Below, piece by piece: positions 5,174 to 63,259 of a stretch of 64,000 bases of DNA. The position numbers were made by a program, and so were the translations under genes. Below the pieces are notes generated by a model that was given only the letters and a program-made list of their open reading frames with translations, made no database searches and was not told the origin of the DNA. Each line of letters opens with the position of its first letter. Position 1 is the stretch's first letter. The DNA comes from a virus, in the IMG/VR virus record IMGVR_UViG_3300013137_000017, positions 2,802 to 66,801 of that record; one strand, given 5' to 3'.

Positions 5174-5174
5174 C

Positions 5175-6472: not shown

Positions 6473-7452
6473 GTCACGATCTTCATTATAACGAACAGAC
6501 GCAGAGACACAGTTTTGTCTCCGCCAAAGAAGTTCCCTGGCATAAGTTAGGGCAGATTGTAGATCACACTATGACAGCTGAAGAAGCCATATGTGAGGCA
6601 GATTTATGTTTTGACGTAGAAAAGCGTCCGATTCTTCGGGATGATAATATACCACTTGAAAACTGGATGGAAACAAGACGTATGGATACCGGCACCACAC
6701 TCGGCCTTGTAGGGAAGAACTATATGGTCATTCAAAATAAAGATTGTTTTACCTTTTTTGATCAAATCGTTGGTGAAGGTAAGGCAATATTTGAAACGGC
6801 TGGCGCACTCAAGAAAGGAGAACAAGTATTTATAACTGCAAAACTTCCGGATGAAATTGTTGTTGCAAAAGATGATATCATACAAAACTATATCGCATTG
6901 GTTACATCCCATGATATGAGTCTTGCATTGACAGCATTCTTCACTCCGGTAAGAATAGTATGCAATAATACTCTGAACGCAGCACTCAGAGATAATTTAA
7001 ACCGCGTATATCTACGACATACAAGTGGTATAAAAGAACAGATGTGGGAAGCAGCAAGAATCATGGGATTAAACTCTAAATATCTTGATAATCTCGGTCT
7101 GACTTTTAATGAACTTGCAGAAAAACCGATCACCGACAAAGAGATGGAAAAAATGATAGGAGAAGTGTTTCTTAATAATGAAGAAAAAAAGGCAATGCTC
7201 ATGGACGGTGATGCGGAAATATCCACAAGGAAAGCAAATACCATACGATCTGTCATAGAATACTATCTTGGAGATCCTACAATGGATACCATCCGTGGCA
7301 CAAAATATGGAGTGTACAATGCAATAACAGGATATTTTCAGAACGTTAAAGAATATTCGTCTGATGATCTAAAAATGAAAAATATCGTGTTGCACGGAAC
7401 CGCCTACAAATATGCACAAAAAGCATTTAATATGCTGATAAAACAAAATTAG
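6469..7452 (+). CDS. DUF932 family phage/plasmid protein
   Basis: PWHKLG, YMVIQN, FETAGALKKG, TSHD, TPVRIVCNNTL, RHT, GTKYGVYNAITGY. Confidence 0.88.
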   Translation: MSHDLHYNEQTQRHSFVSAKEVPWHKLGQIVDHTMTAEEAICEADLCFDVEKRPILRDDNIPLENWMETRRMDTGTTLGLVGKNYMVIQNKDCFTFFDQIVGEGKAIFETAGALKKGEQVFITAKLPDEIVVAKDDIIQNYIALVTSHDMSLALTAFFTPVRIVCNNTLNAALRDNLNRVYLRHTSGIKEQMWEAARIMGLNSKYLDNLGLTFNELAEKPITDKEMEKMIGEVFLNNEEKKAMLMDGDAEISTRKANTIRSVIEYYLGDPTMDTIRGTKYGVYNAITGYFQNVKEYSSDDLKMKNIVLHGTAYKYAQKAFNMLIKQN

Positions 7453-29700: not shown

Positions 29701-32700
29701 GTACTCCATCTTCTGTGTCATAAATTAATTCACCAACATCAATCATTTCGTTTGAATTACTCGACCTGATTTTTGCCAGTGTAGAATGCATTGTACGGAT
29801 GCCGCTACGAAATATCGTTACCATCGGAAGCAACCTCATTCCCAATTGATCTATATATGATCCAAAAGCATCTGAATCTTCAAAATTTGGAAGTTGTTCT
29901 GAATCTCCGATCATAAAAAATGTCATGCCCTTATTTTCTGAGACAGCTTTTGAAATTCTTCTATTAATGATTTGCTGTTCTTTTATACTCCATGCTGATG
30001 CTTCTTCAACGACGACATAATCATACTTTTCTTTTATATTATTTTTGATAAAATCACTTTCTTTTATTATCGTGAATTTGCTATCACTAAGCAAACCACC
30101 CATACTTTTAGATAGGCTTTCATAATTATCTTGATAAAATTGATTTGGAACTACCACAAGTACATTCTGAAATTTTCCAGTAAGTTCTTTTCTTGTTCCT
30201 GCAATATCGATTGCTGCCTGTGTTGACTTTCCCACACCGGTATATCCACGGATAACAACAGTATTTGGCATAAGTGTTTTACTTACATCTTTCCGTGTTT
30301 TTGCGATAAATTCATTACCAGGAGATAAACTATATATTACAGCTTGAATAATTATTTCCTGTTGTTCATAGGAAGAAGGAAATATAAATGGAAGACCTAT
30401 CTTTCCTAATTTGTGTTTTTGATAGAAATCTCTATATGCTTGTCTTACTTCTTTGTACGAAAACTTCGTTCCTTTTCCTGTTTCTCCCAATGTATTAATC
30501 AGATGAAGCATATTAAGTGTATAGTAAAAGAACAGTTGCCTGGAGGTTGTAAGTGGGGCATTTTTTATTCCATATGTTGCTTTGCCTTCTTCATAATTCT
30601 CCACTGTAAGGACTCCTCCAAATCCATCAGAGGTATTCATATCAACAATAAGTTTGTCAGTAAATTCGGAGAACCATGCATACCCGGTCATAGGCCAGTT
30701 TTTAATCACTTCTTCTTCGATATCTTTCAGCTTGCCAGATAATGTATCTGTTGTCGCCACAAGATGTTTTTCAAGCTCCGTGATGATTTTTAATTCCATC
30801 TCGTCTCTTGTAGTCTTTGTTGCATTTTGATACTTCATCCATATCTGACGGATATGTGTTGCTGCATCGTCCTTTTCTACATTTTTAGCAAGAAATGACT
30901 GAAGATCTGTTATTGCTTTTGCAAATTCCGGGATATCTTTATCCTTTTCAAAGATAAACCGCAGAAAAGAATACTGCATTTCCATATGTTGCAGTTTAAC
31001 CCTTATCTTTTCCATAGAACGGATCCGTTCGTCATTCTCTGCAGCAATAATAATTGATCTTAATTGAGATTTTATTTCAGTTATATTGTTATTAATCCTA
31101 TTAATTTCTATATCAGTAAGGCGGAATTCATTATTCCATAGCTTTGTGTGTTCAATAGCCTGAGGGTTAGATTCTACATTATCCTGGAAAAATGTCTTAT
31201 TCATATTTATAGCAAGTTCTACGGCACGAACCCTTTTATAGAACTCATTAGCTTTTTTAAGAACATCAACTGGATTATTGAGAACAGTTGTTCCAATTAT
31301 CTCATTATCCGAAAGAAATTTCCAAAGCATATCTTCCGAAACCTTTGTATTTGTACGAATTCCGAGTCTATCTACAATACTTTTTATGATATCTACTCGT
31401 ACATTTGGATCTTGTCCAAGCAATTCAGTGACAGTTGTAATCTTATTTTTCTTTCCTGTTTCAACATTCAAAATAGAACCAATACTTTCCTGTATTTTAC
31501 GAAGTTCTACAAGAGATGCACCTGATTCCACTGCAGATATTTCATCACCATCTTTTATCTGTTCTTTAAAGGCTATTCTTTGATTATTTATTGCTTCTAT
31601 GTGACGTTCTATTCTATCTTTTAGAGTCTTCTGTTGGTCAGTAGTAAAACTCTCGGATGTAGTATTATTAAGACTTTCACTAAGTTGTGAAATTAAACCT
31701 GAAATGTTTTCTTTAGTACTGCTTAATGACTTCTTATTTGTTAGCATGTCAGGAATTAAGCCAATCGCCTCATCAATATGTTGCATAACACGTTCAAATC
31801 CTACTGGCCCACTTTCAGATAAAATATCAAATGACCTATCTTCCATAGGTTTTGTAATCTCTTGATTATACTTATCTATCTTTGCCTTGAAATTTCTATC
31901 AAGATGATTAATAAATGAGTTTCTATCTTCAAAGTCGTAAAGTTTTAAGGCATCTATTACGTGAGAAAATATACCAGTTGCTTCTCCCAGTGTAAGGCTT
32001 TTATTAAATTTTTCAAGATATTCATTGGTGATTTTTTTAACTTCATCACCATAATTTTCATCATCTATTCTCATTTTCGTGCGTACATCAAGGATCGCCT
32101 GATCTTCTGCCTGGCGACTCATAGCATCTTTTATCGCTTCAAATTGCAAGAACAGATTTGTATAAGCAAGACTTTTCTTTGGATGTAAAAGGCTTCCATT
32201 CTTGTCATAAATAACATCCGTCTTTGGCTCGATGATATCTCTCATCTTTTTTACATACTCTTCTCTTTCTTCTTTAAGCTCTTCTTTTGTTTCGGTGCCA
32301 TCAACAACAGGTTCTTTCGAAAATGAAACAGATTTTGGAGTAACCTTTTTTCCATTCGCCAATTCTTCAAGAGAAGCATCAATATGATCTATTACTTCCC
32401 CGCTTTTAACAGCACTATCTATCAAAGATGGTATTCCATCTGTTGCCAATGCGACCTGTGGACTATTTAACCCATATTTCTGTATTACGCCAACACGTAT
32501 GTCGAGATCATCAAGAAACATAGATACAAGTTCTCCGGCTTGTGAATTAGCTACGGTACCATCCTTTATCACCTCACCAGCAGTAGTCATATAATTCTTT
32601 CCAATCTCTCCTTTTTGTACCATGGTAGTAAGTTCCTTCTCTACACTTACACGAAGTGCCGGATTATCCGCTACCATTCTTGCGAACATACTAAATTGCA

Positions 32701-34522
32701 TATCCGCTGATGGATCTGATGAAGACTTATTGCCAATCATTGGACTGACAACGCCCATTGTAATAAGTGTAGAAAAGAATGCAGCCCATCCCTGATCCCA
32801 GTCAAAGTCATCTTCTATAACCTTTTTCCCTGAGAGTATACTATTGGCGAGTTCCTGTTTTCTTTCAAACTGATTACGTTCAGAAAGACTAATAGGCTTA
32901 AATTCATTCGCATCATATCTGTTAACAAGCATATACGGAGCGCCTGTATTTCCACGAGTAATACCATTACTGTCTTCCCATAAACCATTGTCTGGATTTT
33001 TTACTATATCATAACTACCAAAAGTATTCGCAAACCTATCAGCCCAGTTGCCATAATATCCATTTGCAAGAGAACTCAAGCCAGTGTGCATTAAACCCTC
33101 AACATCTTCTTCAACCATCTCAACGACTGATCCTATGCCAACTCTGTAAGCCCAGTGGCTATCCATAAGTTTAATAAGTTCACCGGGGCCTTTTGTAAGT
33201 GAGTTATAAACCTTATTAGCAATGGCTATCTTTGACGACTTTGCCAGTTCGGTTTGTGTTTTCCCGGTAAGGTTTACTTTTTCTCCATATTTCTGCTGAA
33301 ATATCTTTTTAAAATCCTGAGAAGTAAGTTTTTTTGCTCCTCCTTTTGAAGCAAGTTTATTTACAAGCTGTCCTCCAAGACGTTCATCCACAGGAATTAT
33401 CATTTCTGATAAATGTGTAGCAATACCATACGGTATTGAATTTCTTGCAGCTTCCATATAGTCAAGACCACCTTCCTGAAACTGTTCTTGAAACATACTC
33501 ATTGATTGTAGATCACCTGCAAATAACGATGCCTGTGTCGCAAGCCGTTGTGTCCATATAGCTCCAGCACCAAGAGCCCTGACACCCGCACCAACAGCTC
33601 CACCAGTAAGTATCATCCCTGCTAACTGGCCAACACCATTAAAAACCTGCGCAAGAAATGATGATGTATTATCAAACAAGCGTTTCTTCTCGTCTATATT
33701 TTGTGTAGATACGGAATTCGCCCAGTTTGTCATATTAACATATGACTGATACCAGTCTAATTCTTTATATGCTTCATCTGTTGAATCATGGCTAAGGCGA
33801 TATGTAAGAGATCCTATTGTCCCATATCCAGCGGCAATTCCTTTTACCATCAGCGGGCCAAAGCCATACCACATATTTCTTGACATCGTAGTAAGAGGAT
33901 TGTCCGATCTTATTTTTCTATCAAACCATCCTTTTATCGTTTCAGAAGAGACAAGGGTTCCTTGTGGAGCTTCTTGCCAGAAGAATGAATTTCCGTCAGG
34001 AGCCAGTTTGCGATACAAGTATCCTTTTGCCATTGCAGCTTCTGCAAGTGGACGCATATTTCCATCTGCAGAGATATACACATTTTTCATTGAGGCAGAA
34101 GCATCTCCAGGGTCTGTCTGCAAAAATCCGGTAGCCGGGTCAAATATCCCGAATTCAGGGCCGCTTTTTTTTGTATCATGAACACTGTAATTCGATACTT
34201 TCAGACCATACTCTTTTGCAAATATCCTTCCCCATGGATTATTATCGGCATATACAGTACTGGTCTCATATGGATTCCAGTCCTGATTTTTATAGACATG
34301 CATCATGCCATCAAGTTCTCCGATAAGTCTATCAACTTCTTCTGGTTTATCTTTAAGTTCAGGATAGTTCGTAACAAGTTCATCTTTCGATGGTGGACGC
34401 ACCTGTAATCCAGTCTCTTTTTCCGCTTCAAACAGATCACGATATGTTGCTCCTTTATGGATTGCATCGAATAAGTCGATATATTGTTTCGGTTTGTTTT
34501 CTGGTAATATTGGCTCTGCCAT
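14765..34522 (-). CDS. giant virion RNA polymerase polyprotein (crAss-like, two-barrel RNAP) with SF1 helicase and two zincin motifs
   Basis: 6585 aa; RIP...NSDYDGD catalytic loop (DYDGD 21149-21163); LTDG; Walker A GYTGVGKS (30224-30247); HESMH (26405-26419); HEIAH (18773-18787). Confidence 0.88.
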   Translation of the reverse strand: MAEPILPENKPKQYIDLFDAIHKGATYRDLFEAEKETGLQVRPPSKDELVTNYPELKDKPEEVDRLIGELDGMMHVYKNQDWNPYETSTVYADNNPWGRIFAKEYGLKVSNYSVHDTKKSGPEFGIFDPATGFLQTDPGDASASMKNVYISADGNMRPLAEAAMAKGYLYRKLAPDGNSFFWQEAPQGTLVSSETIKGWFDRKIRSDNPLTTMSRNMWYGFGPLMVKGIAAGYGTIGSLTYRLSHDSTDEAYKELDWYQSYVNMTNWANSVSTQNIDEKKRLFDNTSSFLAQVFNGVGQLAGMILTGGAVGAGVRALGAGAIWTQRLATQASLFAGDLQSMSMFQEQFQEGGLDYMEAARNSIPYGIATHLSEMIIPVDERLGGQLVNKLASKGGAKKLTSQDFKKIFQQKYGEKVNLTGKTQTELAKSSKIAIANKVYNSLTKGPGELIKLMDSHWAYRVGIGSVVEMVEEDVEGLMHTGLSSLANGYYGNWADRFANTFGSYDIVKNPDNGLWEDSNGITRGNTGAPYMLVNRYDANEFKPISLSERNQFERKQELANSILSGKKVIEDDFDWDQGWAAFFSTLITMGVVSPMIGNKSSSDPSADMQFSMFARMVADNPALRVSVEKELTTMVQKGEIGKNYMTTAGEVIKDGTVANSQAGELVSMFLDDLDIRVGVIQKYGLNSPQVALATDGIPSLIDSAVKSGEVIDHIDASLEELANGKKVTPKSVSFSKEPVVDGTETKEELKEEREEYVKKMRDIIEPKTDVIYDKNGSLLHPKKSLAYTNLFLQFEAIKDAMSRQAEDQAILDVRTKMRIDDENYGDEVKKITNEYLEKFNKSLTLGEATGIFSHVIDALKLYDFEDRNSFINHLDRNFKAKIDKYNQEITKPMEDRSFDILSESGPVGFERVMQHIDEAIGLIPDMLTNKKSLSSTKENISGLISQLSESLNNTTSESFTTDQQKTLKDRIERHIEAINNQRIAFKEQIKDGDEISAVESGASLVELRKIQESIGSILNVETGKKNKITTVTELLGQDPNVRVDIIKSIVDRLGIRTNTKVSEDMLWKFLSDNEIIGTTVLNNPVDVLKKANEFYKRVRAVELAINMNKTFFQDNVESNPQAIEHTKLWNNEFRLTDIEINRINNNITEIKSQLRSIIIAAENDERIRSMEKIRVKLQHMEMQYSFLRFIFEKDKDIPEFAKAITDLQSFLAKNVEKDDAATHIRQIWMKYQNATKTTRDEMELKIITELEKHLVATTDTLSGKLKDIEEEVIKNWPMTGYAWFSEFTDKLIVDMNTSDGFGGVLTVENYEEGKATYGIKNAPLTTSRQLFFYYTLNMLHLINTLGETGKGTKFSYKEVRQAYRDFYQKHKLGKIGLPFIFPSSYEQQEIIIQAVIYSLSPGNEFIAKTRKDVSKTLMPNTVVIRGYTGVGKSTQAAIDIAGTRKELTGKFQNVLVVVPNQFYQDNYESLSKSMGGLLSDSKFTIIKESDFIKNNIKEKYDYVVVEEASAWSIKEQQIINRRISKAVSENKGMTFFMIGDSEQLPNFEDSDAFGSYIDQLGMRLLPMVTIFRSGIRTMHSTLAKIRSSNSNEMIDVGELIYDTEDGVRFGIYSHQSQQELIADFLDRKKLPGQGPQDSILVVFDKEEMEYVLEKYPEVKDYESSIRTCVKDPSDSKRWFSGEGHESVFLYTNVFDEGNKKIYPGNRVGNSSAKRILITTLGRAQGSNAYVAIVSTVKSIAGNIQRFSEIEPTMNLNDMMNYIATLREVAPGDEYLLKVPKGEENYDFNRNTNVNNEKDVYQKTKEFLDSLKKPHTGEEQESRVTAIIHQEAVEEGILPEDETDRMNYNARFSQVFQKAILSIIDNKNHPLEEVVSAVEELNKVIVSEKMRIDNPIAFAKSMIKSITTDPQMISLVKSKLSVLLPEIKSKDGTYGHPFLINIVGYTYQDGKVSPIVDIYDLEINNRKNTILDLDARKLGTYAAILLEQGYKINNINVFNYESKPGFAFSWGVPMTLSDDMKTKYIKDGFERIGTEATTPLVSEEEFYQNERIIPDENVDELFPGSDMYYNTTWVNMNTGQMAIIKNVTAIYEESKMIYHVYLDGYEDPLTVEEFQNQYFYQSKFRLFNKFVETAHEFSNNNILYSSGAVYLFPLTTTKYGIPYNENDFYAKDSALVNVRKIINRRLMPGTILQKKYFESINAIVVNPVTGVVNRNETKFSNVIINMIPQDKMDAFFEGIMKDVKKEIKRVSGEQAAKAVTKEWMEAQGLHYISIDSEPEFDFSSKEDKGKTVRALDKFSELRDYVDGKKNYTTDELEAFFRNNGAFISDKKFRDILIDLNVYRLKLLRQLIGGEEVFVEIKKITEGNALNKFSDDEAITWDQLLSNAERYGFRVHPIESRLVKIPKINGRKRFIAKLSWNNEKNGSEILLDAAPLFDAESLSGYVTDIIREFEETINSLEFRQKLSVAEKLLMLPEEERSEKELDEALKQAYAIYEETQAYNFITINEAFFKRYPEFSKLIYFNQKGFLNISTYGSLTDKSGNPITTVEAKSKAILFVLKEILKMKDTLNLKNQPMRKAAWTGHKGQFITENIVTKTYGLSQKSFYLSIPDERPGVASVDEEKDSWLMPVGSDGVLTDNFVDKEVALDQIRDILGVSFKNVDFVDMNRIMEMPASRQFYGMVLQAFISLSEHNGMVNPYAGRHESMHIITEYVITAEAREQLLADIKQHIVKIGRAVDVTEITDKQAIEYIASIFQDKSYRGRGISGFVKRILDWITMVINRIRGKEYSMVNVLYDADRGVFRDHQFQNLSNFTSEYLMPIENEYNSPEVHEKLTEIFKTQENINRIKGELLAPMFIKHYSEWSKDMAQGVDPAWITVTKMYEDLLVIREKILNEGKIQSANVVADEQGERLTDIVYNEKNRKTIYLFDPNSVDGIRTEDVFISHITPEQYDLMQMARTKSGEFRISNEKILRQYEIIHMVSNKTLFFSMMQDIFGNIRLDKLIKSEGLTFDEYTKTIFKLQAGDFNDTNHVGNRSFIVNIVLNTIPKWKVSADGIWKKYDENKRLKHGFCETAVLDKMLLRSVQKILNRGEELTFDAWMNELRMLKKSLPTGNEKNLLQSFLFEIGDEAIYTNADSLIAKNKINNRTSWMFEGIGMLKLVDDFIDPIKRNYMRAYIDKTGMDEADYMEKIFSFWNLLNALMNHYESLYEKEALKFTVSTMGRIETTEYKDLHRSGARSNIKNSIGIKLMDASGTRINDLVRQKLNPGERQWFEVSADGIVNTRTGKQILEKGVFDITVTNAKDLFDFLGIFIYPEQIKTLHDENLLGSYKEIGQGLYYMMLSVKVNIMLSDAVDKMVTDELNKELIHQKLNEDKITNGLWTILMNYYKDNSDHPTYSINTIYNIDNTTERVAYPSPPDQFKFLGKIADATEYNYSKNSTDATRNVENNISFKVNRSSTLFDLFATVGQMNYDGSNIIVKRILKKIQEEGGVLLNNKNNMLLANNIKFDRIMSTIDGITAPLKGVKFENMSDADKYQVLIEKSLEEILYTKEMSAGFAILETFSDRAIYPNFPRFFYQKNGKDVSLVDKKYFETFNRLRTLQISTSVLIDQLEIIKRYYEDLKKYSKENWNAYKSGKKELKDLVLYRDYIIKNGTILPGNAITQTDNPIADINITKLRDMSTLEADKAIYAAFSQHINLSLQKIADSAHNLSAFEVSLFDTFELTDKFKNSLTPQDRIGIEEETLNSSKTLGEFFRKYEQDVQNYRDRLKELQAQRKKLLKLGKEEETKELLSKIYSLSNAVTASNEIRDDFFLLIGKEMKNNGYKQVKEENTTYHPLLEAIYWNHYFINEMVTPLVRGPVYGYKNFIDFIKRGTGPVAPGDKYATINEDDRYSAILDVLPKESRVVYLKDVVGLNTLFGKKEIKLTDGLSIMNPIYDRMLFLASAASAGTLGIGSKKNVNNYYSHRYETEIFHKYNQYPIPESQFKNSSFYQEMTRMMIGDELYSMLKTMLANNVPYYQAIDNLVRYVQQDSEGWNKKMVGYVVFSSAVKTGVTKVNDLKSRTGENVTLDNVTVPMELNSDENIVWVRNDTLRHQTKMRQNPFGEETSLPLQVIHVTGTFDHNKDINERYTDAIRLNIDKWITKIQSMKRGELIDYIRKNALRRGRNVSYAGKHLSLLNDPSVDINAIRSFAIQMFYNDAESALRFKLPGAFHVQAPSFTKIKMVQTKNGRSIPVLSNSDENLENDSVEGYRMIMPHGYVTEDGSEITSRDELDKNPKAIYRPAEVIAPFHHMDKFGLTPDITLKEAMTYVIGEDVYSLYDSGLKTQRSSSDEIYQELSKAFADPDISVDDIYMAFGSKMASVLRRKYEEYILEKDPAKEGTLEMSGKLLNKKHIISYLSRYYFAFNEALNVFIVRIPTTNSNMGSLGRIVAFANDAENLIYLSPERNQLDNSDYDGDSVNIIYHPIKDDASIDTENIDQIMFFRGIQEYYNNYKNHPFILTALETDTLENFAESLSEDKPQDLLWPFSNFGKIVENDRIIYDGKVLVGHFANLNNFFTTLFTIPKGKRTELFGSSTFLGKDVAIPETFAMIAKLVQAATVNAGLGGALGRLNINVYTSPLIAGLLFSGLNSSEQAEMDKFETVEEKQKYFEERIYKILTSPAVVKATAKTINANRATSEFTSKIWKYLTGVETVEGYSMQELKNIALKGEQVRRLINFIAIEKSIGGNIFELTGNIKNVEKWLGMDLSVFLSNIDAIRKKNTKYVKTPKQQAEYFIENFYQYSSDKSAKNKMGNEINIRNTFNIAEVIANIPRSISYLDLMNQLEKSIKRVFLVDQNIDILTDLVREKTQRNELWGEDEFNPLVDDFEKFIIGNVMENETFSFEDDFMNELGLKNGVFTMDQSEYGRGLFMALAPQYLSYLKQYDAYKNNLFVQEIERTSNVNLSEQIQFSGSLSIDDHRRNVMIIDFRKLNPKHQQFFRLYSALNFGFEVRNGSFNSMIDNNIERQYGEFVRKDRGSAGTLYNPDMDYLSDEIIRKNGILTKYDRTNKSGAKFTRRNKDLRIRMMLMETDSMGEVKKSVNPYPFTVNPYFSSSSNVPYLTGKPIGSDKIVKFHRDGIIKLSFDYEHGVFAPEAKTMGFQVKGGDTVVLSDSSHARVVWHDKYNIDYVKEKKNDTLSSRLRKDNRLASEMIDGLIYFINKAFPNIKFILTSNSDPTNPNRSDIAFIYNGKVYINTDRIQKDTPIHEIAHIVILIMKSISHPSYESLRSEALRIINSNNEEAKLIKAAYPYLSGEDLVDEVISNIAGWKSESDVADFLNSWKSRQADRKMEIWNSVKDFITSLWNALRNFFYTIFGLDPKLNLNISPEMQTLEQFAKVLTDAVFSGKSISSLNSEKLMQLQSGVMLSSKSVNPVVSLKNFHDVIYLGEANVETRRKLQIRWLKDVIRNNKNDVPIFISPGYGKFGDLDDPKNQPVLENLFDQYEAYKNNFGDKVIEYLMGGRKEIDTFVNDMGDTVSRYTDQTTMKFKRSIGFSRHSKYMRYSKLKDNKNLKHLYDENYVFPGFDPIVSIDYTSDKGIGLSIYDVQSGSLGAYDTLTPKNSKMFHYIIDKRTAVRKGINIDNKEIEFHKLYLMMLAQKFVEDKKVVINDMGVVQLYAGKHGEDRTGGGVSFEQIDNVALGKTMLNIGKVPEIMEILKGSPLSERFDQKNIRHITQDYIASLKAKKDKEGVGLRGITVNTRISDAEKISVLSRQLRRLQKKISDISIGTQHYSIDDIEEMRMIIGTIFQIRGIPVMDYNINQYMDLDQLRLFVTDTSSIGQEDVQKIRRFGLDIFGRVINNYNQMMLPLKEKDGVFDYIYKEFAPLLTGRVLNISDHLFDRLYVQEKGLDGKMHYTGHIYWTDDVNDPHIRTAWEREMAKKAKELGLSKELLAAGRKIVNVIEQALIYNLTKHYQNEPSGYLMAKDQLEFTEDDAKAMLFSEESTYVRGMIPILPQSAGEKFSQGKIYAGMKARVMELTDVYSQYSESSRAEIDEIDDLNKMRDMFFWQFGITNSQKEKYGNTRRSYGLLGLGVETVVENGVNVDKYVLKDEEVNKNISKNLEMLMNYFVMSSIRNGEIEENLLPTINAMKIVALNDRVNKDYKNLGVSQFLELFDEQAIRGKRKKITPKEVDTTLQILSSVAAPLVMAFNINIPIISLVTNGMYAFVEGITSNIAKKGGFDKKYFGSQHLLKSTAAFLTKNGFKKMTQLAMHDFQLVSSNDYELINLPIHQKTKKSIFTRFYVNWGNWATDVFARCVAMGAQMMHDGSWDAYDYDEKTGTVTYDPKKDKRLGWNGKDFSEAGKAYMEWQKKRAAYENTVGPVKGYTLEEARLFKVLSDKYIIGAYDNKTRSLWANYMIGKMFLMFKQWMITRFENAFAVEKTLDEGGKVEMIKDENGEWTAQWERVMVDGTVSTVYGYIRDSILAKKPLSLKNLSASKKYAMTKATMNLAMYTFMYFLFAQLVDQGEDEDKDKPIPNWRIVKNFRYAYQSLLVWPMMIEGVTRPFPAVDILAGFWQDMFGNFKLKNAPFANQGYDLIEPLIDEQE

Positions 34523-55405: not shown

Positions 55406-57463
55406 TTAAATGTGGGTTGGAACTATAATACCGTTTCTTTCAACATAGCCCTTAAATTCTATTTCTGGCCGTCGTAATTCTACTGCTTTTTGCTCGATAG
55501 CCGTATTTTCAACCATGGCAATGCATAACATCGATGCAATGGTCAGGTCGCAATTATACTTTGGATCTCTGCGAAATTTTGCCCATGCCATTAAAAGTTC
55601 TTCAAATGGACAATTATATATATTTATTACATCAAGTAGATAGTCTTTCAGTCTGGTCAATCCGGAAGGAACAAGGCTTGCCGGGAATCCATATTTATTA
55701 CTTACCTGACTACGTTCTACATATTGTGCTATATACCAATCCGGTCGCGAATGCAGAAACCCTTCAAGTCCGTAAAGTTCATAATAGTCAAAGATAAGTA
55801 TTTTAGAATATTCAATCATATTATAGGTACGGTAATAGATTGATAGTTTTGCTGCATTTTCATATGCTGTTGTGCGTCCTCCCTGAGCTTCTCCAGGCCG
55901 GTCGAGATACATTGCAACAAATGTATTAAAAACCTGATTTTCTTTGACTGTAAGATTTTTATTATATCCTTTATAGACAAGTGATGCTAACTTTGAAGAT
56001 GATGTCATCGCTTCATCAAAGTCATATGAGTCTGTTCCTTGTCCATACAAGCCTTCGATAGTTTTATTATTATCATCAATCTGTGGATGTTCTGCAATGG
56101 CGATATCTCCTTTATCCATATTAAATTCCCATTCAACGCCTTCCCAGGGTTTACGACGATCTTTATAGTGGAGAAATCCTCTTTCAACACGTTGCAGTCT
56201 TTTATGTGTGACGATATTGCTTCTTGCCTGGGAACAGTGATAGGATATCTCTTCTCCAAAAAATCCGCCAAGAACGATGTTAAACATCTCTCTGGTATCT
56301 ATTGGTTCCATAGCAATGAGAAGCGCCCTTTCGGATGGAGATTTTGACTTTCGTTCTCTGTCAATCAGTTCAAGAGCTTCTTTTTTGAGACTGTTACCAT
56401 CATCATCGATAAGTTTGAATTTCCATGCGGGAATAAAACAGGCTATTTCCATGTCCGGATCCGCATCGGTGTCGTAGATATTTTTTATCGAATACAGTTC
56501 ATATTTTTCAGGAGTATAGATCATCTTCTCTATATCTGCAACCCCGTCAACATATTTTCCGGAAGTTCCTGTATAAACTATAAATCCAGTTCTTCTTCCC
56601 TGAGTTCTGATAGACGGATAGACAAACTGTGCTATCTCTCTGGAAAGGTTTTCTTTCATAATCCCGATCTCTTCCATATGTACCTTATATAACATATTGA
56701 GACCTGACAATACCTGGGAATTATTTTTTGCTGTTCTTGAATGTATCTCCGTACCTGTATTAGCTGCTTTGAGAACGTCAGGATTATCGAGTTTTATCTC
56801 TTTATAGAATTGTGTGTTATAAAGGTTGTATATGCCTCTTTTAACCATTGAGAAGGTATTTTGGTTATATTGGTCAAGTCCTCCGACGATAGCCACCTGC
56901 ACATCGTTCATAAACAAGAATATCCATGCTGTATCTGCTGCTTCCTCTTCGCTTAATCCTTTCTGTCTGCATTTAAACCAGCCGATATCCTTATTTATCA
57001 TTTTCGATCTTTCACGGATCATCCAATTTTCCCATGATAAATCAGTAAAATATGGGTTGCCAAGTGTTTTTTTCTGCTGCATCCTATCTTCTCTCGATAT
57101 TGCCCAGAAATTAAGATAGAAGTAGTTTCTTCCGGTGATATATAGGTCTCCCTGCGGATTTATCGTTATGCCGAGATGAGGAAGATATCTCCCACCGTTT
57201 TCTGTATGAAAGACATTTACTCCATCAATAAATATCTCACCTCCGTCGAAAGATACTGCATTAGGTACTATATAGCCATTCTTACATCTTGTACGTTGGC
57301 GATCCCACCATGCTCTATCAATGACAAACTTCTTTAAGAATTTTTCATATTCGCGTTTTGTTGTAGGGATATTGGCAGGATCTTCCCAGTACATATCCAG
57401 ATCATGAGGCACATCACCTTCATAAATAACAGGAGAAAGTCGTTTTGTGTTTATAAACTTCAT
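55406..57463 (-). CDS. terL: terminase large subunit
   Basis: ITGRNYFYLNF; Walker A KCRQKGLS; Walker B HMEEIG; TGTSG; nuclease GTDSY and CDLTIA. Confidence 0.92.
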   Translation of the reverse strand: MKFINTKRLSPVIYEGDVPHDLDMYWEDPANIPTTKREYEKFLKKFVIDRAWWDRQRTRCKNGYIVPNAVSFDGGEIFIDGVNVFHTENGGRYLPHLGITINPQGDLYITGRNYFYLNFWAISREDRMQQKKTLGNPYFTDLSWENWMIRERSKMINKDIGWFKCRQKGLSEEEAADTAWIFLFMNDVQVAIVGGLDQYNQNTFSMVKRGIYNLYNTQFYKEIKLDNPDVLKAANTGTEIHSRTAKNNSQVLSGLNMLYKVHMEEIGIMKENLSREIAQFVYPSIRTQGRRTGFIVYTGTSGKYVDGVADIEKMIYTPEKYELYSIKNIYDTDADPDMEIACFIPAWKFKLIDDDGNSLKKEALELIDRERKSKSPSERALLIAMEPIDTREMFNIVLGGFFGEEISYHCSQARSNIVTHKRLQRVERGFLHYKDRRKPWEGVEWEFNMDKGDIAIAEHPQIDDNNKTIEGLYGQGTDSYDFDEAMTSSSKLASLVYKGYNKNLTVKENQVFNTFVAMYLDRPGEAQGGRTTAYENAAKLSIYYRTYNMIEYSKILIFDYYELYGLEGFLHSRPDWYIAQYVERSQVSNKYGFPASLVPSGLTRLKDYLLDVINIYNCPFEELLMAWAKFRRDPKYNCDLTIASMLCIAMVENTAIEQKAVELRRPEIEFKGYVERNGIIVPTHI

Positions 57464-58092
57464 TTTTCTTCCGTTTCATTAGCTGTTCTGGAGTCGTACA
57501 ATCTTTTTAATGCAGCTTCTTTTTCACGTTCATGTGCTTCTATCTTTAAATTTTCCTGAACTTTTTTGAGAATTTCAGAAAAGCTCTGTGCTGCATTATA
57601 CATCTTTCTTTTTTCTTCAACATTAGGTAAGAGTATAGTCTGTTCGATAAGGATTCTTCGGTCTATATTTTCTTCATCTTTTATTATAGCACCTTCATTG
57701 AGTTTTACTTTGATAGTCATTGGAGTATTTATAAGAAGTTCTATAAGTTCGTCGGCATCGCTTTTCAGTTTATCTTCCATCTTATCATTTGTCGTATAGC
57801 AAATGTCGATATAAACTTTTATAAGTTCCTGAACATTCTCATTTCGTGCTATTTTTTCCCAGCGTTCTCCTTTCAAATAGTCTTTATTGACAATATCTGT
57901 TCTTTCCTCTATACTCTTATTCCAATATAGTGATCTCGGTGTGTATATAAAATAGACTCCTGTTATCACGTTATTAAAATATGTCTTTGCCTTGCCGGTC
58001 TTATCGTTATTATATACTTGCATCACGCATGGAATACTGAATGCATCGTCACGACATAAGACTTTTCCTTTTTCTGTATATAAAAAACTCAT
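57460..58092 (-). CDS. conserved protein upstream of TerL (putative terminase small subunit)
   Basis: 210 aa, helical; ATGA overlap with TerL. Confidence 0.5.
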   Translation of the reverse strand: MSFLYTEKGKVLCRDDAFSIPCVMQVYNNDKTGKAKTYFNNVITGVYFIYTPRSLYWNKSIEERTDIVNKDYLKGERWEKIARNENVQELIKVYIDICYTTNDKMEDKLKSDADELIELLINTPMTIKVKLNEGAIIKDEENIDRRILIEQTILLPNVEEKRKMYNAAQSFSEILKKVQENLKIEAHEREKEAALKRLYDSRTANETEEK

Positions 58093-58298
58093 TCTTTTTT
58101 TGTACTTTTCTTACTATCATTCTCTTGTCTTGGTGGATCTTTCTGAATCCTATCTTCATTTAAACTGACATTGGCGATGAATGTTATATCGAGCACTTTG
58201 CGCACGATGGGGAACACATTGATTCCGCCATACTGGAGTGTCAGGTGAATGAGGTCATTGTATATTTTCTGTGCTTCTTCGTCCACTACGATTTTCAT
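58089..58298 (-). CDS. hypothetical protein
   Basis: 69-aa coupled ORF. Confidence 0.6.
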   Translation of the reverse strand: MKIVVDEEAQKIYNDLIHLTLQYGGINVFPIVRKVLDITFIANVSLNEDRIQKDPPRQENDSKKSTKKE

Positions 58299-58304
58299 TG
58301 TTCT

Positions 58305-58478
58305 TTATTTTAAAAGGTTGATTAGTTCTGTTTTTGTCATTTTCATATCAGCCTCAATACCTTTATTTAAGAGGAAAGCTAATATTTCTTTTTTTGTCCA
58401 TTGTTCATCTGGAACATTTAGCTGTTGTACCACCTGTATCTTATCCAGGTCATGTACCTTTTCGATGATGATTCCCAT
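58305..58478 (-). CDS. small HeH/SAP-like protein (not in the ORF track)
   Basis: 57 aa: MGIIIEKVHDLDKIQVVQQLNVPDEQWTKKEILAFLLNKGIEADMKMTKTELINLLK; fills the intergenic gap. Confidence 0.65.
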   Translation of the reverse strand: MGIIIEKVHDLDKIQVVQQLNVPDEQWTKKEILAFLLNKGIEADMKMTKTELINLLK

Positions 58479-58489
58479 AGTTAGTTGTT

Positions 58490-59149
58490 TTAATGTTTGA
58501 ATAATTTATCAAGATATATTCCGGCCTGTATTTTGGCGTATAACTCATTATGGTAAGCATTATATTCTCCACCTGCTCCAACAAGAACATAATCTTTTAT
58601 AGTATAGTTTACGGTCATATCAAAATTAGGAAATTTTTTGAAACTATTTCCAATAATAGATGCCTGGAGTAACCAATGGTTTTTCGGTCTGTATGCAGGA
58701 ATTTTATCAATGCATGTATCTACTGTTCTTCGTTCCAGAATGGTTTTCTCCGGTATGAAAATTTCAGATAACTCCATCCTTTCCACTTTACAATCCTTAA
58801 TAACCATGTTGATGTTAAACCTCCCGAAGACAGAATCGTTTGGTTGCCACCTGTACGGGAAGGTATATGTAGATTTACAGGGAGTGGCTTCAACTTCCTC
58901 AACTGCGGGCTTTGCTGGTTCATAATACATGGGTTTAGGTTCAACATAAAATGTATCAATAACAGGGATAGCTCTCCACATTACAATACGCTTTACAGGG
59001 GCATTCTCACAGGCAACCCTCCGGGTAATTTCAATATCTGTTTTCTTCCGCTGTCCGTTCCACATAAAGAACAAGACAATGATAGCGATAACAGCCACCG
59101 CTTCACCCGCCCATCTTAGGTAATCCATTAATTTATATTTCATCTTCAA
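58490..59149 (-). CDS. membrane-anchored lysis accessory protein (spanin-like position)
   Basis: N-terminal TM helix; C-terminal amphipathic beta strands; directly after the endolysin. Confidence 0.55.
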   Translation of the reverse strand: MKMKYKLMDYLRWAGEAVAVIAIIVLFFMWNGQRKKTDIEITRRVACENAPVKRIVMWRAIPVIDTFYVEPKPMYYEPAKPAVEEVEATPCKSTYTFPYRWQPNDSVFGRFNINMVIKDCKVERMELSEIFIPEKTILERRTVDTCIDKIPAYRPKNHWLLQASIIGNSFKKFPNFDMTVNYTIKDYVLVGAGGEYNAYHNELYAKIQAGIYLDKLFKH

Positions 59150-59666
59150 AGAATTTTATTTCACCTGTTACATATAAGTGTGCTTCGCACTTCCTTCTCC
59201 GGATAAGTCCTGCCATTCTCTTCTTCTCTCCCGCCTCATCAATCAATCCATCCTCATCATCATCAATTCCATTCTTTGTCCCATCACCTGAATATCTGAA
59301 TCTCTGTATGTATTCAGGTATCCGTTTATCAAATGGATCAATACAGACCTTCTTGTATGCAGTAGAATCAAGAAATTGTGTCACGCCAATATTATACATA
59401 AAGATGATCAATGCATCGAACTGATGTTGCAGCAATGGAACAAGGATATTCTTATTCAGATAAAACTCAAATTGATGAAGGTCATGATGCATCAACTCAT
59501 ATGCTCTCTCCTTTATGATATGCTCCCCTTGTTTAACCTCTGCCCCTGACTCATACCGTGTAGTTCCTAATCCTATTGTCCAGATTCCCCGTGGACATAG
59601 ATAACTGTCAAGAAAGCATCCTTCAAAATGCTCAATAGCTTTAATTACATTATCGCTACTTTTCAT
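59133..59666 (-). CDS. endolysin, GH24 phage lysozyme
   Basis: FEG...YLCPRGIWTIGLGTT; QFDAL..F.YNIG; GLIRRR..E; likely start ATG 59666. Confidence 0.9.
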   Translation of the reverse strand: MKSSDNVIKAIEHFEGCFLDSYLCPRGIWTIGLGTTRYESGAEVKQGEHIIKERAYELMHHDLHQFEFYLNKNILVPLLQHQFDALIIFMYNIGVTQFLDSTAYKKVCIDPFDKRIPEYIQRFRYSGDGTKNGIDDDEDGLIDEAGEKKRMAGLIRRRKCEAHLYVTGEIKFFEDEI

Positions 59667-60006
59667 CTGTTCTGGCACTTGTTTTTGTTTTGTCGTAACT
59701 ATTGATGATTTCGGTAATTTGTTTGCGATTAATCGGCTTATAAAATATATGATCCACTCTGGTATCTTCATAGTCGGCATATGCTGTTACGATTATTATT
59801 TTTGCTATTGTTCTTCTTTTTAACGCTGTAATGTATTCTTTTCCAGCAAGCCCCGGAAACCCTATGTCTGTAAAGATTATATCTACTTTATCTCCCAAAC
59901 GCAGGGCTTCCGTGGAATGTTTTGCTTCGTTTATCCTATGCCCGCGGCATATAACTTTTAGCAATTCACGATCAGCATTCATCTGATCAGCGATTAGTAT
60001 TCTCAT
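59656..60006 (-). CDS. stand-alone CheY-like response regulator receiver protein
   Basis: MRILIAD; DIIFTDIGFPGLAG (phosphoacceptor D); IIIVTAY; YKP. Confidence 0.85.
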   Translation of the reverse strand: MRILIADQMNADRELLKVICRGHRINEAKHSTEALRLGDKVDIIFTDIGFPGLAGKEYITALKRRTIAKIIIVTAYADYEDTRVDHIFYKPINRKQITEIINSYDKTKTSARTDEK

Positions 60007-60347
60007 TTAACAGGTTTTTCGTATGTATCTGGTTTCGGAGGAGGAGCTACGGCAGACAGAACAGCGATTACAGTCAATATCACCAACTGTACCCAATCAA
60101 TTTTACCGCCATCCCATACCTGTATGAAAGTAGCACACAACGTACCGATGATGCCGGTAATTGTTAATCCTGCCCCACGCCATTTATTAGCAATATATGA
60201 GAGTATTGCCATCAAAACAGCAAATCCTATCACACTCCATTCAATTGTTTCTGCTCCTACAAACTGTTGCAGGGCAACGGCAATAGCCGCACCAAGGCCT
60301 GACAGAAAGACCTTGTTCTGTTTAAGAAATTCCCATACTTTTTTCAT
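60003..60347 (-). CDS. putative holin
   Basis: 114 aa; about 4 TM helices; charged C-terminus; near the lysozyme. Confidence 0.7.
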   Translation of the reverse strand: MKKVWEFLKQNKVFLSGLGAAIAVALQQFVGAETIEWSVIGFAVLMAILSYIANKWRGAGLTITGIIGTLCATFIQVWDGGKIDWVQLVILTVIAVLSAVAPPPKPDTYEKPVK

Positions 60348-60532
60348 GTTACTTTGTTTTTGTTGTACTTAATTTTCTCCCTTACAGTATTTTCTTTTGG
60401 GAGTTTATCGTATTCTTCTTTTGTAAGAAGTTTTCCTGTTCCGGCATGACGATACCTGTACTTTGGTTTTTTTTCTTTTGGTTCTTTTGGTTTCAATCCA
60501 AACGATACCAGTACTTTGTTCAATAAATTCAT
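60344..60532 (-). CDS. small basic hypothetical protein
   Basis: 62 aa; YRHAGTGKLLT...ENTVRE; GTGA/ATGA-type overlap with the holin start. Confidence 0.6.
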   Translation of the reverse strand: MNLLNKVLVSFGLKPKEPKEKKPKYRYRHAGTGKLLTKEEYDKLPKENTVREKIKYNKNKVT

Positions 60533-60538
60533 GGCTGT

Positions 60539-60769
60539 TTATTTTATATATGATATAGTAATCTGCACAAGTATTGTTACAACCAGTGCTGCCAAGGCGC
60601 CCCACATGACTGCTTTTGTTTCAAGGATAGTTACCTTTGTATTTAACTTATCCAGTTTCTCTTCAATCCTGCTTGTTTTTGCATCAAGACCATCAAGTTG
60701 TTTCAGAACGAGTTTTTTATATTCGTTCCAACCGTTTATTGGTATATTATTTTCCATCTGGGTATCCAT
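60539..60769 (-). CDS. coiled-coil plus C-terminal TM protein (XhlA/holin-like)
   Basis: Heptad LDGLDAKTSRIEEKLDKL, then a TM helix. Confidence 0.6.
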   Translation of the reverse strand: MDTQMENNIPINGWNEYKKLVLKQLDGLDAKTSRIEEKLDKLNTKVTILETKAVMWGALAALVVTILVQITISYIK

Positions 60770-61154
60770 TTGAAGAAGGTATTGTTATTGCAATCATTTT
60801 ACATCCATTATTGCTTTTCGCAACGTGAGGTTCGTTAGGACTTATTATAATAGGATCACCAATATATCCTTGTATAGAACCGTTTTTGAACTCGACTTCC
60901 AGATCACCTTCAAATGGAATAAGAATTTCAGATTCATCATGATCGTGGCATTTGAGTTCTGTTTTTCCTCCCATATACGCTATCTGTACAGCAACACTTT
61001 TTGTTTTGTATAGACCAAGACCGCCACATTCTCCTGTTTCAACGGAATACACAGCTTTATTTCCGGTGATATCTGCTATCATATGCAAAGGAGTAACGGT
61101 TTCAGTAAGTTCACGTATACGTTCAAGGTTTTGTTTTAAGTCAAAATCTGTCAT
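60747..61154 (-). CDS. cupin domain protein
   Basis: HDHDESEILIPFEG (H-x-H-x3-E) and GD.IIISPNEPH metal-binding motifs. Confidence 0.82.
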   Translation of the reverse strand: MTDFDLKQNLERIRELTETVTPLHMIADITGNKAVYSVETGECGGLGLYKTKSVAVQIAYMGGKTELKCHDHDESEILIPFEGDLEVEFKNGSIQGYIGDPIIISPNEPHVAKSNNGCKMIAITIPSSNGYPDGK

Positions 61155-61158
61155 CGGT

Positions 61159-61434
61159 TTATCTATTTATGTTAATAGTCATTGTAGTTGTATCTCTTTC
61201 TATTCCTTCTTCCTGCATCTTTCGTAGATGTTCTCTTGCTCTTACTTCATCTAATATTCTCTTTGGCATATTCTTCACATCATTCTTTATCTCATCAATG
61301 TCACCCTTTATCTCAACATGATCTTCTTCATGATATCTCCGTTCTGTCCTATTTTCAATAAAGAACCCATATAACCCTAACATTCCTGCGATTATTATTG
61401 AAGCCAATCCGTTCTTCTTTATCCACTCGATCAT
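61159..61434 (-). CDS. N-terminal TM plus coiled-coil protein
   Basis: 91 aa; TM helix LASIIIAGMLGLYGFFI. Confidence 0.65.
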   Translation of the reverse strand: MIEWIKKNGLASIIIAGMLGLYGFFIENRTERRYHEEDHVEIKGDIDEIKNDVKNMPKRILDEVRAREHLRKMQEEGIERDTTTMTININR

Positions 61435-62282
61435 GGTTTGTATATCCTTAGATAATCGACTGTTACTGTTTGCGGAAACATCAACTTTTTATTTGCATCG
61501 TTTATCAAAGTAGTATCACACCCCTGATAAATACCATTTCCAACCAAGAAATATATAGGTTCTGCATTCAATCCTTCCATTTCAAATTCACCGGTCATTA
61601 CGTTATCAAGATAAATTCGGTACTTATGCGGCCAGAGTTCACAGGCATAGATATGAAAGTCTTCCGACAAGTCAACCGGAAAATTGAATCGCTGATGTGA
61701 TTTGCCTTTGATCGTAGTCGAACGGTGAATTGTTGAGGTAAATGATTTGCTTGTTTCGCATTCAAATTCCATATAATCATTCTCAGGAAGCCAACCGTTA
61801 GGGGAGTAACTTAAAAACGAAGTCCAGTAGGTATTGCCTTTCGGTGCTACACGCATACGAACAGCCACATATACCGGGGGCATGAATGTTTCAATAGTAG
61901 CTATCTGCCCACTTACAACGTCCGTTGAATTAGGTTGTTTGTTTAGGTCTGTTACCAAGTTCAAATATCCTCCATCTACCCACCTGACCTGATCCGGGTT
62001 CCATTCACAGTAATTCCACGGGTCATCGGCAGGCTTCAATGTGCCGTCGTCGTTATACATACCTCCATCTTTTCTACAAACATGGTTAATTCCCCAGACC
62101 TCACAGACATCTAATTCGATTGTAGGGGGCCTATCGGCTTCTGTGTTGAATGAATAGTCTTTGTACAACTTATACCCTTGTGGAGCCTGTTCGTTCGTTG
62201 GAGGGTGCTGTAATATAGAAATAGGTACAGGACTGCACCCGGCAAGCAGAATCAAAATGAATATGTAGGTTAATCGCTTCAT
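61431..62282 (-). CDS. GH16 glycoside hydrolase lipoprotein
   Basis: Lipobox LAGC; catalytic E-x-D-x-x-E (ENDYME); DFHIYACELWP...IYLDN; VDYLRIYK. Confidence 0.85.
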   Translation of the reverse strand: MKRLTYIFILILLAGCSPVPISILQHPPTNEQAPQGYKLYKDYSFNTEADRPPTIELDVCEVWGINHVCRKDGGMYNDDGTLKPADDPWNYCEWNPDQVRWVDGGYLNLVTDLNKQPNSTDVVSGQIATIETFMPPVYVAVRMRVAPKGNTYWTSFLSYSPNGWLPENDYMEFECETSKSFTSTIHRSTTIKGKSHQRFNFPVDLSEDFHIYACELWPHKYRIYLDNVMTGEFEMEGLNAEPIYFLVGNGIYQGCDTTLINDANKKLMFPQTVTVDYLRIYKP

Positions 62283-62289
62283 CTTACTC

Positions 62290-62655
62290 TTAATAATCAG
62301 TCATTGCCGGGGGGACAGGAATAAGTGGTGAATTAAACGCCTCATAGATTACAGAATGATTGAAAGCACAAAACTGTAATACATGATACTGTATATCTGT
62401 ATCATCGGGAAATGTTTCAGCAATTAAGGACTGCACTATCTCTATCATGTACTTTTCAAACATCTTTACAACAACAACTTCCATAATTTGCTGCTCAGTC
62501 ATACCTTCATTATTATAAAGGTCTTCAAGGATAGCGGGTTCATTTTCCTCTATCTCTTTCACCATCTGAACTATTTCAATTTTCTGCCCAGTGGTAAATG
62601 GATTACAGGCATTTATCTGCTGAATCCATCTTTTAATTTGTGTTAATTTGTCCAT
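62290..62655 (-). CDS. hypothetical protein
   Basis: 121-aa acidic helical ORF. Confidence 0.65.
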   Translation of the reverse strand: MDKLTQIKRWIQQINACNPFTTGQKIEIVQMVKEIEENEPAILEDLYNNEGMTEQQIMEVVVVKMFEKYMIEIVQSLIAETFPDDTDIQYHVLQFCAFNHSVIYEAFNSPLIPVPPAMTDY

Positions 62656-62656
62656 C

Positions 62657-62691
62657 TGTATTTATTTTAAACGTTCTTTCAGGGCAACCAG
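62657..62691. repeat. 35-bp direct repeat, copy 1
   Basis: 33/35 identical to 63262-63296. Confidence 0.85.
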
Positions 62692-62739
62692 AAGCAGCAG
62701 GGCAAGCCAAATGATAAATATGTAGATTGATCGTTTCAT
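62662..62739 (-). CDS. 25-aa hydrophobic peptide (not in the ORF track)
   Basis: MKRSIYIFIIWLALLLLVALKERLK; fills the intergenic gap. Confidence 0.45.
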   Translation of the reverse strand: MKRSIYIFIIWLALLLLVALKERLK

Positions 62740-62755
62740 CTTAATCTTTATATAT

Positions 62756-63259
62756 TCATAGCGGCGTGTCAACATTTATTGTGTCTATGACAATCCAGTT
62801 TCCTTCGGTACTTAGAAAAAAATTACCACCCCCTTCTTGTATGTAAAGAGTATCACTATATCTATACCTATCAATTATCTCTTTCATTAATTTATCAAAC
62901 TCTAATAGTTCAGGTTCTATATATTCCCACATTGTTATCTCCCAACGCTCTTGAATAACACCTTGTTGATTTATTCTCCTCTGCTGCTTTTTATATGCTT
63001 TTGGGCAGCAACAAGGACAATATTCCGTTGTGAACACATAATCAATTATTACTTCCCATTCAGAATAGACCCATTCACTATTACAATCAGAGCAATAATT
63101 AATAGTATCAGTAGTTTTCCAATCCGTAATGACTGGTTTCTGTTTGATACATTCACCGCATTTGAATCTTCCCCCTGTAAATGGATTTGTCTGGGGAAAA
63201 CCTGCCATATTGATTAAAATAACAAACAAAATAATTAATATGAAAAATAGCTGCTTCAT
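62756..63259 (-). CDS. secreted/membrane Cys-rich hypothetical protein
   Basis: N-terminal signal/TM; CGEC, CSDC and CPCCC. Confidence 0.65.
   Translation of the reverse strand: MKQLFFILIILFVILINMAGFPQTNPFTGGRFKCGECIKQKPVITDWKTTDTINYCSDCNSEWVYSEWEVIIDYVFTTEYCPCCCPKAYKKQQRRINQQGVIQERWEITMWEYIEPELLEFDKLMKEIIDRYRYSDTLYIQEGGGNFFLSTEGNWIVIDTINVDTPL

Follow-up and report, generated by a model that had tools for sequence, protein, structure and literature searches.

Here we describe a small receiver-fold protein encoded between a holin candidate and an endolysin in a 64,000-nucleotide stretch of viral DNA (the window; positions 2,802 to 66,801 of IMG/VR record IMGVR_UViG_3300013137_000017). The viral record is 66,801 bases long, with an estimated completeness of 76% (CheckV), and belongs to a distant crAss-like phage. 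It encodes a 487-amino acid (aa) protein matching Crass_capsid (63.1 bits), a 1370-aa protein matching the crAss muzzle (46.1 bits), and a terminase (55406-57463, minus strand) that matches crAss-like terminases at about 24-27% identity. Downstream of the tail-fibre C-terminus and a GH16 lipoprotein gene, the minus strand carries a packed chain of genes, the last five of which are joined by overlaps. These encode, in order, a 62-aa basic soluble protein (60344..60532, an open reading frame, ORF), a 114-aa holin candidate with four hydrophobic segments and a Pro/Lys-rich polar C-terminal tail (60003..60347, ORF and hydropathy), a 116-aa stand-alone receiver-fold protein (59656..60006, PF00072, AlphaFold2 and Foldseek), a GH24 phage lysozyme as the endolysin (59133..59666, PF00959 and phrog_7) and a 219-aa protein with one N-terminal membrane anchor (58490..59149, ORF and hydropathy). 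The three middle genes, all on the minus strand, stand where an initial interpretation of the DNA letters (the sequence-only reading) had placed them.

The stop of the 62-aa gene shares an ATGA with the start of the holin-like gene, and the stop of the latter shares a second ATGA with the receiver start (60003-60006, tcat on the plus strand), a junction that had been described correctly. The receiver stop is a TAG at 59656-59658. Its overlap with the lysozyme gene, previously given as 11 nucleotides (nt), has that length only with an internal-Met start of the lysozyme (ATG at 59666); the open frame reaches 59780 within the receiver gene, and a start there, giving the longest ORF, would extend the overlap to 125 nt. 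The internal start is supported because homology to the lysozyme of a viral contig carrying a related cassette (L005) begins at an internal Met in each protein, at residue 39 in the window and residue 14 in L005 (BLASTP). In L005 and another such contig (L006), the frame upstream of the endolysin Met falls in the receiver gene and is common to two unrelated enzymes, and therefore represents receiver coding and not endolysin coding. At the end of the chain, the overlap between the lysozyme stop and the 219-aa gene is 11 nt if the latter starts with the ATG at 59143, and 17 nt if it starts with the TTG at 59149. Counts of sigma-70-type promoter-like sites (15 in 58000-62800, with a mean of 17.6 in shuffled sequence, for a consensus that may not fit the host) and of terminator-like sites (5 in the same interval, with 2.8 in shuffled sequence) are uninformative.

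The 116-aa protein matches the response regulator receiver family (Response_reg, PF00072; E 1.7e-9, 38.3 bits, curated cut-off 30.2) over profile positions 1-110 of 111, and its relatives in L005 and L006 score 44.2 and 44.1 bits, respectively. It has no output domain and no hydrophobic segment, the latter suggesting a cytoplasmic location. An AlphaFold2 model built on a six-sequence family alignment (pLDDT 83.8, pTM 0.78) predicts the order b1-a1-b2-a2-b3-a3-b4, a loop at residues 75-85, and b5-a5, with helix alpha4 absent from the usual receiver arrangement of a five-stranded parallel sheet and five alternating helices. In a Foldseek comparison of this model with the PDB, 452 or more matches reached E<=1e-3, and all 46 of the PDB chains listed have a receiver fold (TM about 0.75, range 0.67-0.78 by query; 45 from response regulators or sensor kinases, and 1 designed response-regulator-like protein). 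Pfam, AlphaFold2 and Foldseek agree, and the receiver fold proposed from the sequence is predicted to be genuine.

The active site of a receiver comprises a quintet of residues: an acidic pair (DD1 and DD2), the acceptor Asp (D), a Thr or Ser (T/S) and a Lys (K). In the window protein the acidic pocket reads A6-D7-Q8, so that DD1 is D7 and DD2 is Q8, and Q8 aligns with the second Asp of Thermotoga TrrA (3a0r_B, the best solved-structure sequence match, E 6.2e-8). D47, T74 and K90-P91 are kept. The spacing from T74 to K90 is 16 residues, compared with a mode of 22 in aligned generic receivers (29/68). All three of these features, namely the retained Asp, Thr and Lys-Pro, the atypical ADQ pocket and the short alpha4 region, had been noticed in the sequence-only reading. 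The quintet is thus incomplete, with a non-acidic DD2. In the accessible part of a review (PMC12632262), DD2 is described as binding the metal ion directly, receivers are by definition acidic at this position, and a computationally recognised receiver without at least one of the five residues is termed a pseudo-receiver. By that definition the window protein is a pseudo-receiver. It is not an aspartate-less receiver (ALR), since D47 is present.

Close relatives are few. An exhaustive phmmer search of 1.84 billion representatives gave 576 proteins at E<=1e-3 and only 3 at E<=1e-10; the matches below the top three are generic receiver domains of multi-domain proteins. The family considered here has 12 distinct members of 81-120 aa (alignment A5), made up of close phmmer matches and further members from a profile search, together with the window copy and L005; the canonical receiver P0163 was used as an outgroup only. 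DD1 is Asp in all 11 members that cover it (one lacks the N-terminus). DD2 is Gln in nine, Gly in one and Pro in one, and hence acidic in 0/11. The T position is Thr or Ser and the Lys-Pro is kept in all 12, while the acceptor position is Asp in five and Glu in seven, the latter qualifying as ALRs. By comparison, among the 148 nearest non-family matches aligned to the query, DD2 is Asp or Glu in 107/111 and the acceptor is Asp in 147/148. A maximum-likelihood tree of the family needs three changes between Asp and Glu, at least two of which are forced by well-supported branches; the Glu-type P0158 clusters with the Asp-type L005 and L006 proteins (support 95/100). A model of the Glu-type member P0003 has the same alpha4-less topology (pLDDT 85.8 for the best model and 59.7-68.5 for the other four).

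Looking for longer, fused forms returned generic hybrid kinases only (at most 61 bits, compared with at least 114 bits for the family), which is weak evidence that such forms are absent. Searching 50,697 phage records with the receiver and P0003 (tblastn) gave no match at E<=1e-3, and 22 weak generic matches at E<=10. Close-relative scans of viral contigs with single queries (the receiver, the holin-like protein or the lysozyme) found no relatives, and rescans with wider alignments and with the 219-aa neighbour as query added no contigs to those already obtained. One scan of genome contigs was likewise empty. Candidates that were set aside include two from a metagenome scan (L003 and L004, ordinary bacterial regulators with 30% identity to the query, with ORFs examined for L003 only) and two genome contigs (L011 and L012, generic regulators with 26-30% identity).

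These residues bear on whether the protein could work as a phospho-receiver, phosphorylated by a host kinase or by acetyl phosphate, and either setting lysis timing by the state of the host or draining phosphate from host two-component systems. In favour of this, D7, D47, T74 and K90-P91 are retained in the window copy, and canonical receivers hold a similar position in four cultured Alteromonas phages (see below). A phosphoryl donor would have to come from the host. In agreement with the earlier observation for the window, the entire 66,801-base record (estimated to be 76% complete) yielded no HATPase_c, HisKA or Hpt domain, and neither HATPase_c nor HisKA turned up in the complete 46.7-kb genome L007, which carries a related cassette. 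Against phosphorylation, the position that binds the metal ion according to the accessible part of PMC12632262 is Gln here and non-acidic throughout the family, helix alpha4, part of the usual output face, is predicted to be absent, and Glu, interchanged with Asp at least twice, cannot serve as the acceptor Asp of a switch or a sink. The same part of that review lists a non-acidic DD2 in about 80% of pseudo-receivers, with D commonly replaced by Glu, a frequent phosphomimetic. Together with the kinase searches, these features make the phospho-switch interpretation weak, and we consider a working phospho-receiver improbable. The proposal of a phosphate sink for host two-component systems is accordingly not supported by the family alignment and the missing helix, and from the proposal of a phage switch linking lysis to host signalling the connection to lysis genes survives while the working phospho-switch probably does not.

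That connection is seen in all four readable versions of the cassette, in which a small multi-pass membrane protein is followed by the receiver and then by an endolysin. The window version consists of the 114-aa four-segment protein, the receiver and the GH24 lysozyme. In L002, an unrelated 77-aa two-segment protein precedes the receiver and a GH24 lysozyme that differs from that of the window at 1/155 codons compared. In L005, another unrelated small membrane protein (67 aa, two segments) precedes the receiver and a GH24 lysozyme 39% identical to that of the window. In L006 and L007, which are the same phage (99.9% identical), a 76-aa two-segment protein (43% identical to that of L002) precedes the receiver and an endolysin of the Peptidase_M15_3 family. 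The receiver thus keeps its place while the membrane protein is of three unrelated kinds and the endolysin of two (GH24 and peptidase M15), and its tie to the lysis genes holds in spite of the non-homologous replacement of both neighbours. The junction between membrane protein and receiver is ATGA in the window, L002 and L005, and TAAATG in L006, implying co-translation, and the receiver stop falls inside the endolysin start in every version.

At the DNA level, the receiver gene is a homologous island flanked by genes that have been exchanged. The window and L002 become similar within one base of the receiver start codon. L005 and L006 are 90% identical over 5001-5290 (the receiver) only, with no similarity in the preceding gene (4799-5000) or in the following endolysin. 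Codon comparisons further indicate that the gene is under purifying selection. The window receiver and its nearest relative, that of L002 (92% protein identity), differ at 25 synonymous and 9 non-synonymous codons, all within codons 1-77, and from codon 78 through the lysozyme the two sequences differ at a single codon. The L005 and L006 receivers differ at 18 synonymous and 11 non-synonymous codons, six of the 11 being among the nine final codons, in the part where the downstream genes diverge. Such selection on the amino acid sequence argues against the gene being a mere spacer.

The constant position of the receiver stop inside the endolysin start could suggest a role as endolysin helper, either as a cytoplasmic chaperone or inhibitor that holds the enzyme until release, or as a device that sets the ratio of holin to endolysin translation. 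Mycobacteriophage Ms6 encodes a small chaperone-like protein just upstream of its endolysin, which offers a precedent. However, receivers that are 90% identical in DNA stand before different enzymes, GH24 in L005 and an M15 peptidase in L006, making an enzyme-specific fit unlikely, and we regard a helper function as very improbable.

The exchange of both lysis neighbours also means that the partner of the receiver need not be a lysis protein. It may instead be a host-directed effector without a lysis role that rides in the late lysis operon, imitating a single-domain regulator of the host, either as a constitutively 'on' mimic or as a decoy; late in infection it would bind a kinase, a phosphotransferase or a regulator target of the host, to block, for instance, an envelope-stress or defence response. 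The phosphomimetic reading of Glu at the D position (PMC12632262, accessible part) fits such a role, as does the occurrence of the module on two different phage backbones. The latter is indicated because the window terminase has no match in the complete L007 genome (46.7 kb, with terminal repeats). Common to the window and L006 are the GH16 protein (55% identity), the tail-fibre C-terminus (46%) and the anchored 219/227-aa protein (40%). A host-directed role has also been assigned to the receiver of Alteromonas phage R8W, which its authors read as the host-metabolism gene 'PhoB' (PMC8228385, as far as accessible). On the other hand, a passenger gene is not expected to keep its exact slot and its start and stop overlaps through four cassette versions, unrelated receivers recur inside the lysis clusters of other phages, and no host target is known. 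A purely host-directed effector is therefore unlikely in our judgement, with a greater claim to attention than the helper or the phospho-receiver.

We propose that the protein is a phage-specific stand-alone pseudo-receiver serving as a phosphorylation-independent cytoplasmic lysis accessory, which acts by protein contact and tunes lysis, a proposal to which we give an even chance of being right. In this proposal, a CheY-like fold would have lost the metal-binding second Asp and helix alpha4, with the acceptor Asp freely exchanged with Glu, and would have become a fixed cytoplasmic part of the lysis cassette within the overlapping gene chain. The receiver stays while the holin-like and endolysin genes are swapped, and its partner is therefore most likely something common to all cassette versions, which could be a host protein or a general lysis step. 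Through this contact it would tune when or how lysis proceeds, probably without being phosphorylated. Both the independence from phosphorylation and any effect on lysis are what we infer from the cassettes and the family alignment.

Receivers among lysis genes are also found, independently, in cultured phages. In all four of the cultured Alteromonas phages examined, a canonical receiver lies among the lysis genes, downstream of the tail fibres. In R9Y2 (OM732336.1), gp12, annotated as hypothetical, is a canonical receiver (PF00072, 83.3 bits) whose gene shares 4 nt with each of its neighbours, the genes for an anchored coiled-coil protein (gp13) and a GH108 lysozyme (gp11). R8W, XX1924 and PT11-V22, which are of other morphotypes than R9Y2, show the same placement. 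The gene order is holin (phrog_1356), 98-aa protein and receiver gp48 in R8W; a protein matching the PHROG 'hemolysin' families 937 and 1193, the receiver (annotated as 'response regulator'), a DUF5675 protein and a 3TM holin in XX1924; and an annotated amidase, gp029, receiver gp030 and an Rz-like spanin in PT11-V22. In all four receivers the DD/D/S/K set and the alpha4 region are complete, and the C-terminus is extended by 30-40 aa. With 16-21% identity to the window protein and an hhalign probability of 96% over 71 columns, they appear only generically related to the window family and form a separate sequence family.

The R8W receiver was interpreted in the accessible part of PMC8228385 as 'PhoB', an auxiliary gene of host metabolism for low phosphate, and its lysis neighbours are not mentioned there. 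The encoded protein (L014 2501-2962) has 153 aa, with a Pfam receiver domain at residues 4-115 and no other domain, and lies two genes after the holin; the published annotation as a DNA-binding 'PhoB' looks over-stated. The text of the R9Y paper contains neither 'receiver' nor 'response regulator'. A search of titles and abstract openings found no receiver or pseudo-receiver described as a component of a lysis cassette, and supplementary annotations might differ. Three literature matches proved unrelated: in the phage N4 pinholin, 'Receiver domain' simply labels part of gp63, the 'cREC' domain of jumbo phages is tied to NAD and ADP-ribose systems and not to lysis, and a match to 'CheY' is the name Cheyenne in an acknowledgement. 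Receivers embedded in lysis cassettes are a recurrent theme that appears unstudied, to which the window adds a stand-alone, alpha4-less viral pseudo-receiver.

Taken more widely, receiver-fold proteins could be a class of cytoplasmic components that recurs in the lysis cassettes of tailed phages and has gone unrecognised. Canonical forms would let host phospho-signalling time lysis, while the crAss-like lineage would have been hard-wired, with DD2 lost, Asp and Glu interchangeable and alpha4 deleted, giving a constitutive regulator for any holin-endolysin pair. We offer this generalization tentatively, as a possibility that is on balance doubtful.

A number of points weigh against the proposal of a phosphorylation-independent lysis accessory. 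The main weakness is that the readable contexts are all Asp-type (window, L002, L005 and L006/L007), and 0/7 Glu-type members could be placed in a gene context. The family is small and found in metagenomes only, with 12 members and four independent contexts, and position alone cannot separate a lysis regulator from a late-expressed host-directed effector. The window copy retains DD1, D, T and K, and might, with metal bound in an altered way, be phosphorylated by a kinase of the host or from a small molecule, which is unlikely. The canonical quintet of the receivers in Alteromonas lysis clusters hints that the wider theme may be phospho-dependent. Finally, Pfam and PHROG searches with the 114-aa protein gave no family, including no holin, and other small membrane proteins lie nearby, so that which one is the holin is uncertain.

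CheY, Spo0F and TrrA resemble the window protein in consisting of a single receiver domain of about 110-120 aa without an output domain, and Spo0F, TrrA and CheY-type structures are among the Foldseek matches to its model (TM by query 0.68-0.77). Unlike them, the window receiver has Gln at DD2, is predicted to lack alpha4, has a T-K spacing of 16 compared with about 22, and is a phage lysis-cassette gene with no partner kinase found in the record; its family also swaps the acceptor Asp for Glu. The Alteromonas phage receivers share with it the stand-alone form and the position among lysis genes, and differ in being canonical, with full alpha4 and a C-terminal extension, and in having gammaproteobacterial hosts. 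T4 RIII is a small soluble antiholin with a proposed cytoplasmic-side action on the lysis machinery that affects timing. RIII has one specific holin as its partner, in contrast to the interchangeable holin-like gene of the present cassettes, and the two proteins have no relation in sequence or fold. Among pseudo-receivers, the losses in the window family are the commonest ones described in the accessible part of PMC12632262. The examples given there lie within larger proteins (regulators, kinases and clock proteins), in contrast to the stand-alone, viral, alpha4-less protein in a lysis cassette; 'phage' occurs 0 times at the start of a word in the accessible review text, and 'bacteriophage' once.

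The timing of lysis determines phage fitness, and the regulators known so far comprise holin isoforms, antiholins and a handful of proteins specific to individual phages. A receiver-fold protein that remains fixed in the cassette through swaps of both holin and endolysin would, if confirmed, be a new type of lysis accessory. The interchange of Asp and Glu provides a natural experiment on whether phosphorylation matters, and the theme is testable in the cultured Alteromonas phages, which carry canonical versions in the same place.

Among the neighbouring genes, the 114-aa protein is regarded as the holin candidate by its size, its four hydrophobic segments and its polar tail. Its nearest Atlas clusters are viral hypothetical proteins (0.93, 0.91 and 0.90), and sub-threshold language-model neighbours include Phage_holin_10 (0.85) and Phage_holin_9 (0.84), which are leads only. 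The lysozyme is well assigned (PF00959, 97.7 bits; phrog_7 endolysin, E 8.6e-37). The 219-aa protein matched nothing in Pfam and PHROG searches; it is 40% identical to a 227-aa protein of L006 (6689-7372), which stands beside the cassette in L006/L007, and its nearest Atlas clusters are large viral clusters at 0.97, with DUF6808 on 30% and 13% of members. This anchored protein is a candidate for a spanin-like role in disrupting the envelope. In L006/L007, a gene for a calcineurin-like metallophosphoesterase (L006 5709-6692; PF00149, 25 bits), which is absent from the window cassette, separates the M15 endolysin from the 227-aa protein.

Upstream of the holin candidate, the 62-aa protein has no Pfam or PHROG family, and over 31 aa of its C-terminal part it shows 77% identity to an ORF fragment of L002 that lies upstream of the swapped holin-like gene. 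The 62-aa gene is preceded, at a distance of 6 nt, by a gene for a 76-aa protein (60539..60769, minus strand, ORF and hydropathy) with a coiled-coil-like N-terminal part and a C-terminal hydrophobic segment at about residues 54-70. A Pfam search with the 76-aa protein gave nothing above cut-off, and weak PHROG matches (phrog_1103, E 3.7e-4; phrog_1193 'hemolysin', E 0.0094) are no more than a weak lead towards an XhlA-like lysis accessory.

Directly after the tail fibre, the window and both L005 and L006 encode a GH16 glycoside hydrolase (36.1 bits; window 61431-62282, minus strand; L005 3255-4106; L006 3220-4071). Its N-terminus resembles a lipoprotein signal by eye, with an LPAM_1 score of only 13.6 bits (cut-off 20), and the protein may be a polysaccharide-degrading virion or lysis accessory. 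In L005 and L006, the GH16 gene is separated from the small membrane proteins by a gene for a secreted cohesin-domain protein of 166 aa (PF00963, 25.0 bits, cut-off 24.1; L006 4047-4547, L005 4082-4582).

Elsewhere in the window, a single minus-strand ORF (14765-34522) encodes a protein of 6585 aa, far above the typical size of a phage protein, and occupies about 30% of the window. In a Pfam search, its N-terminal 3000 aa gave only a sub-threshold match to AAA_30 (21.2 bits, cut-off 27), and the remaining 3585 aa gave none. On the plus strand, an SMC/RecF-like AAA ATPase (7458-8762; AAA_23, 67.4 bits) adjoins a DUF932 protein (6469-7452; 184.8 bits) in the replication-side module.

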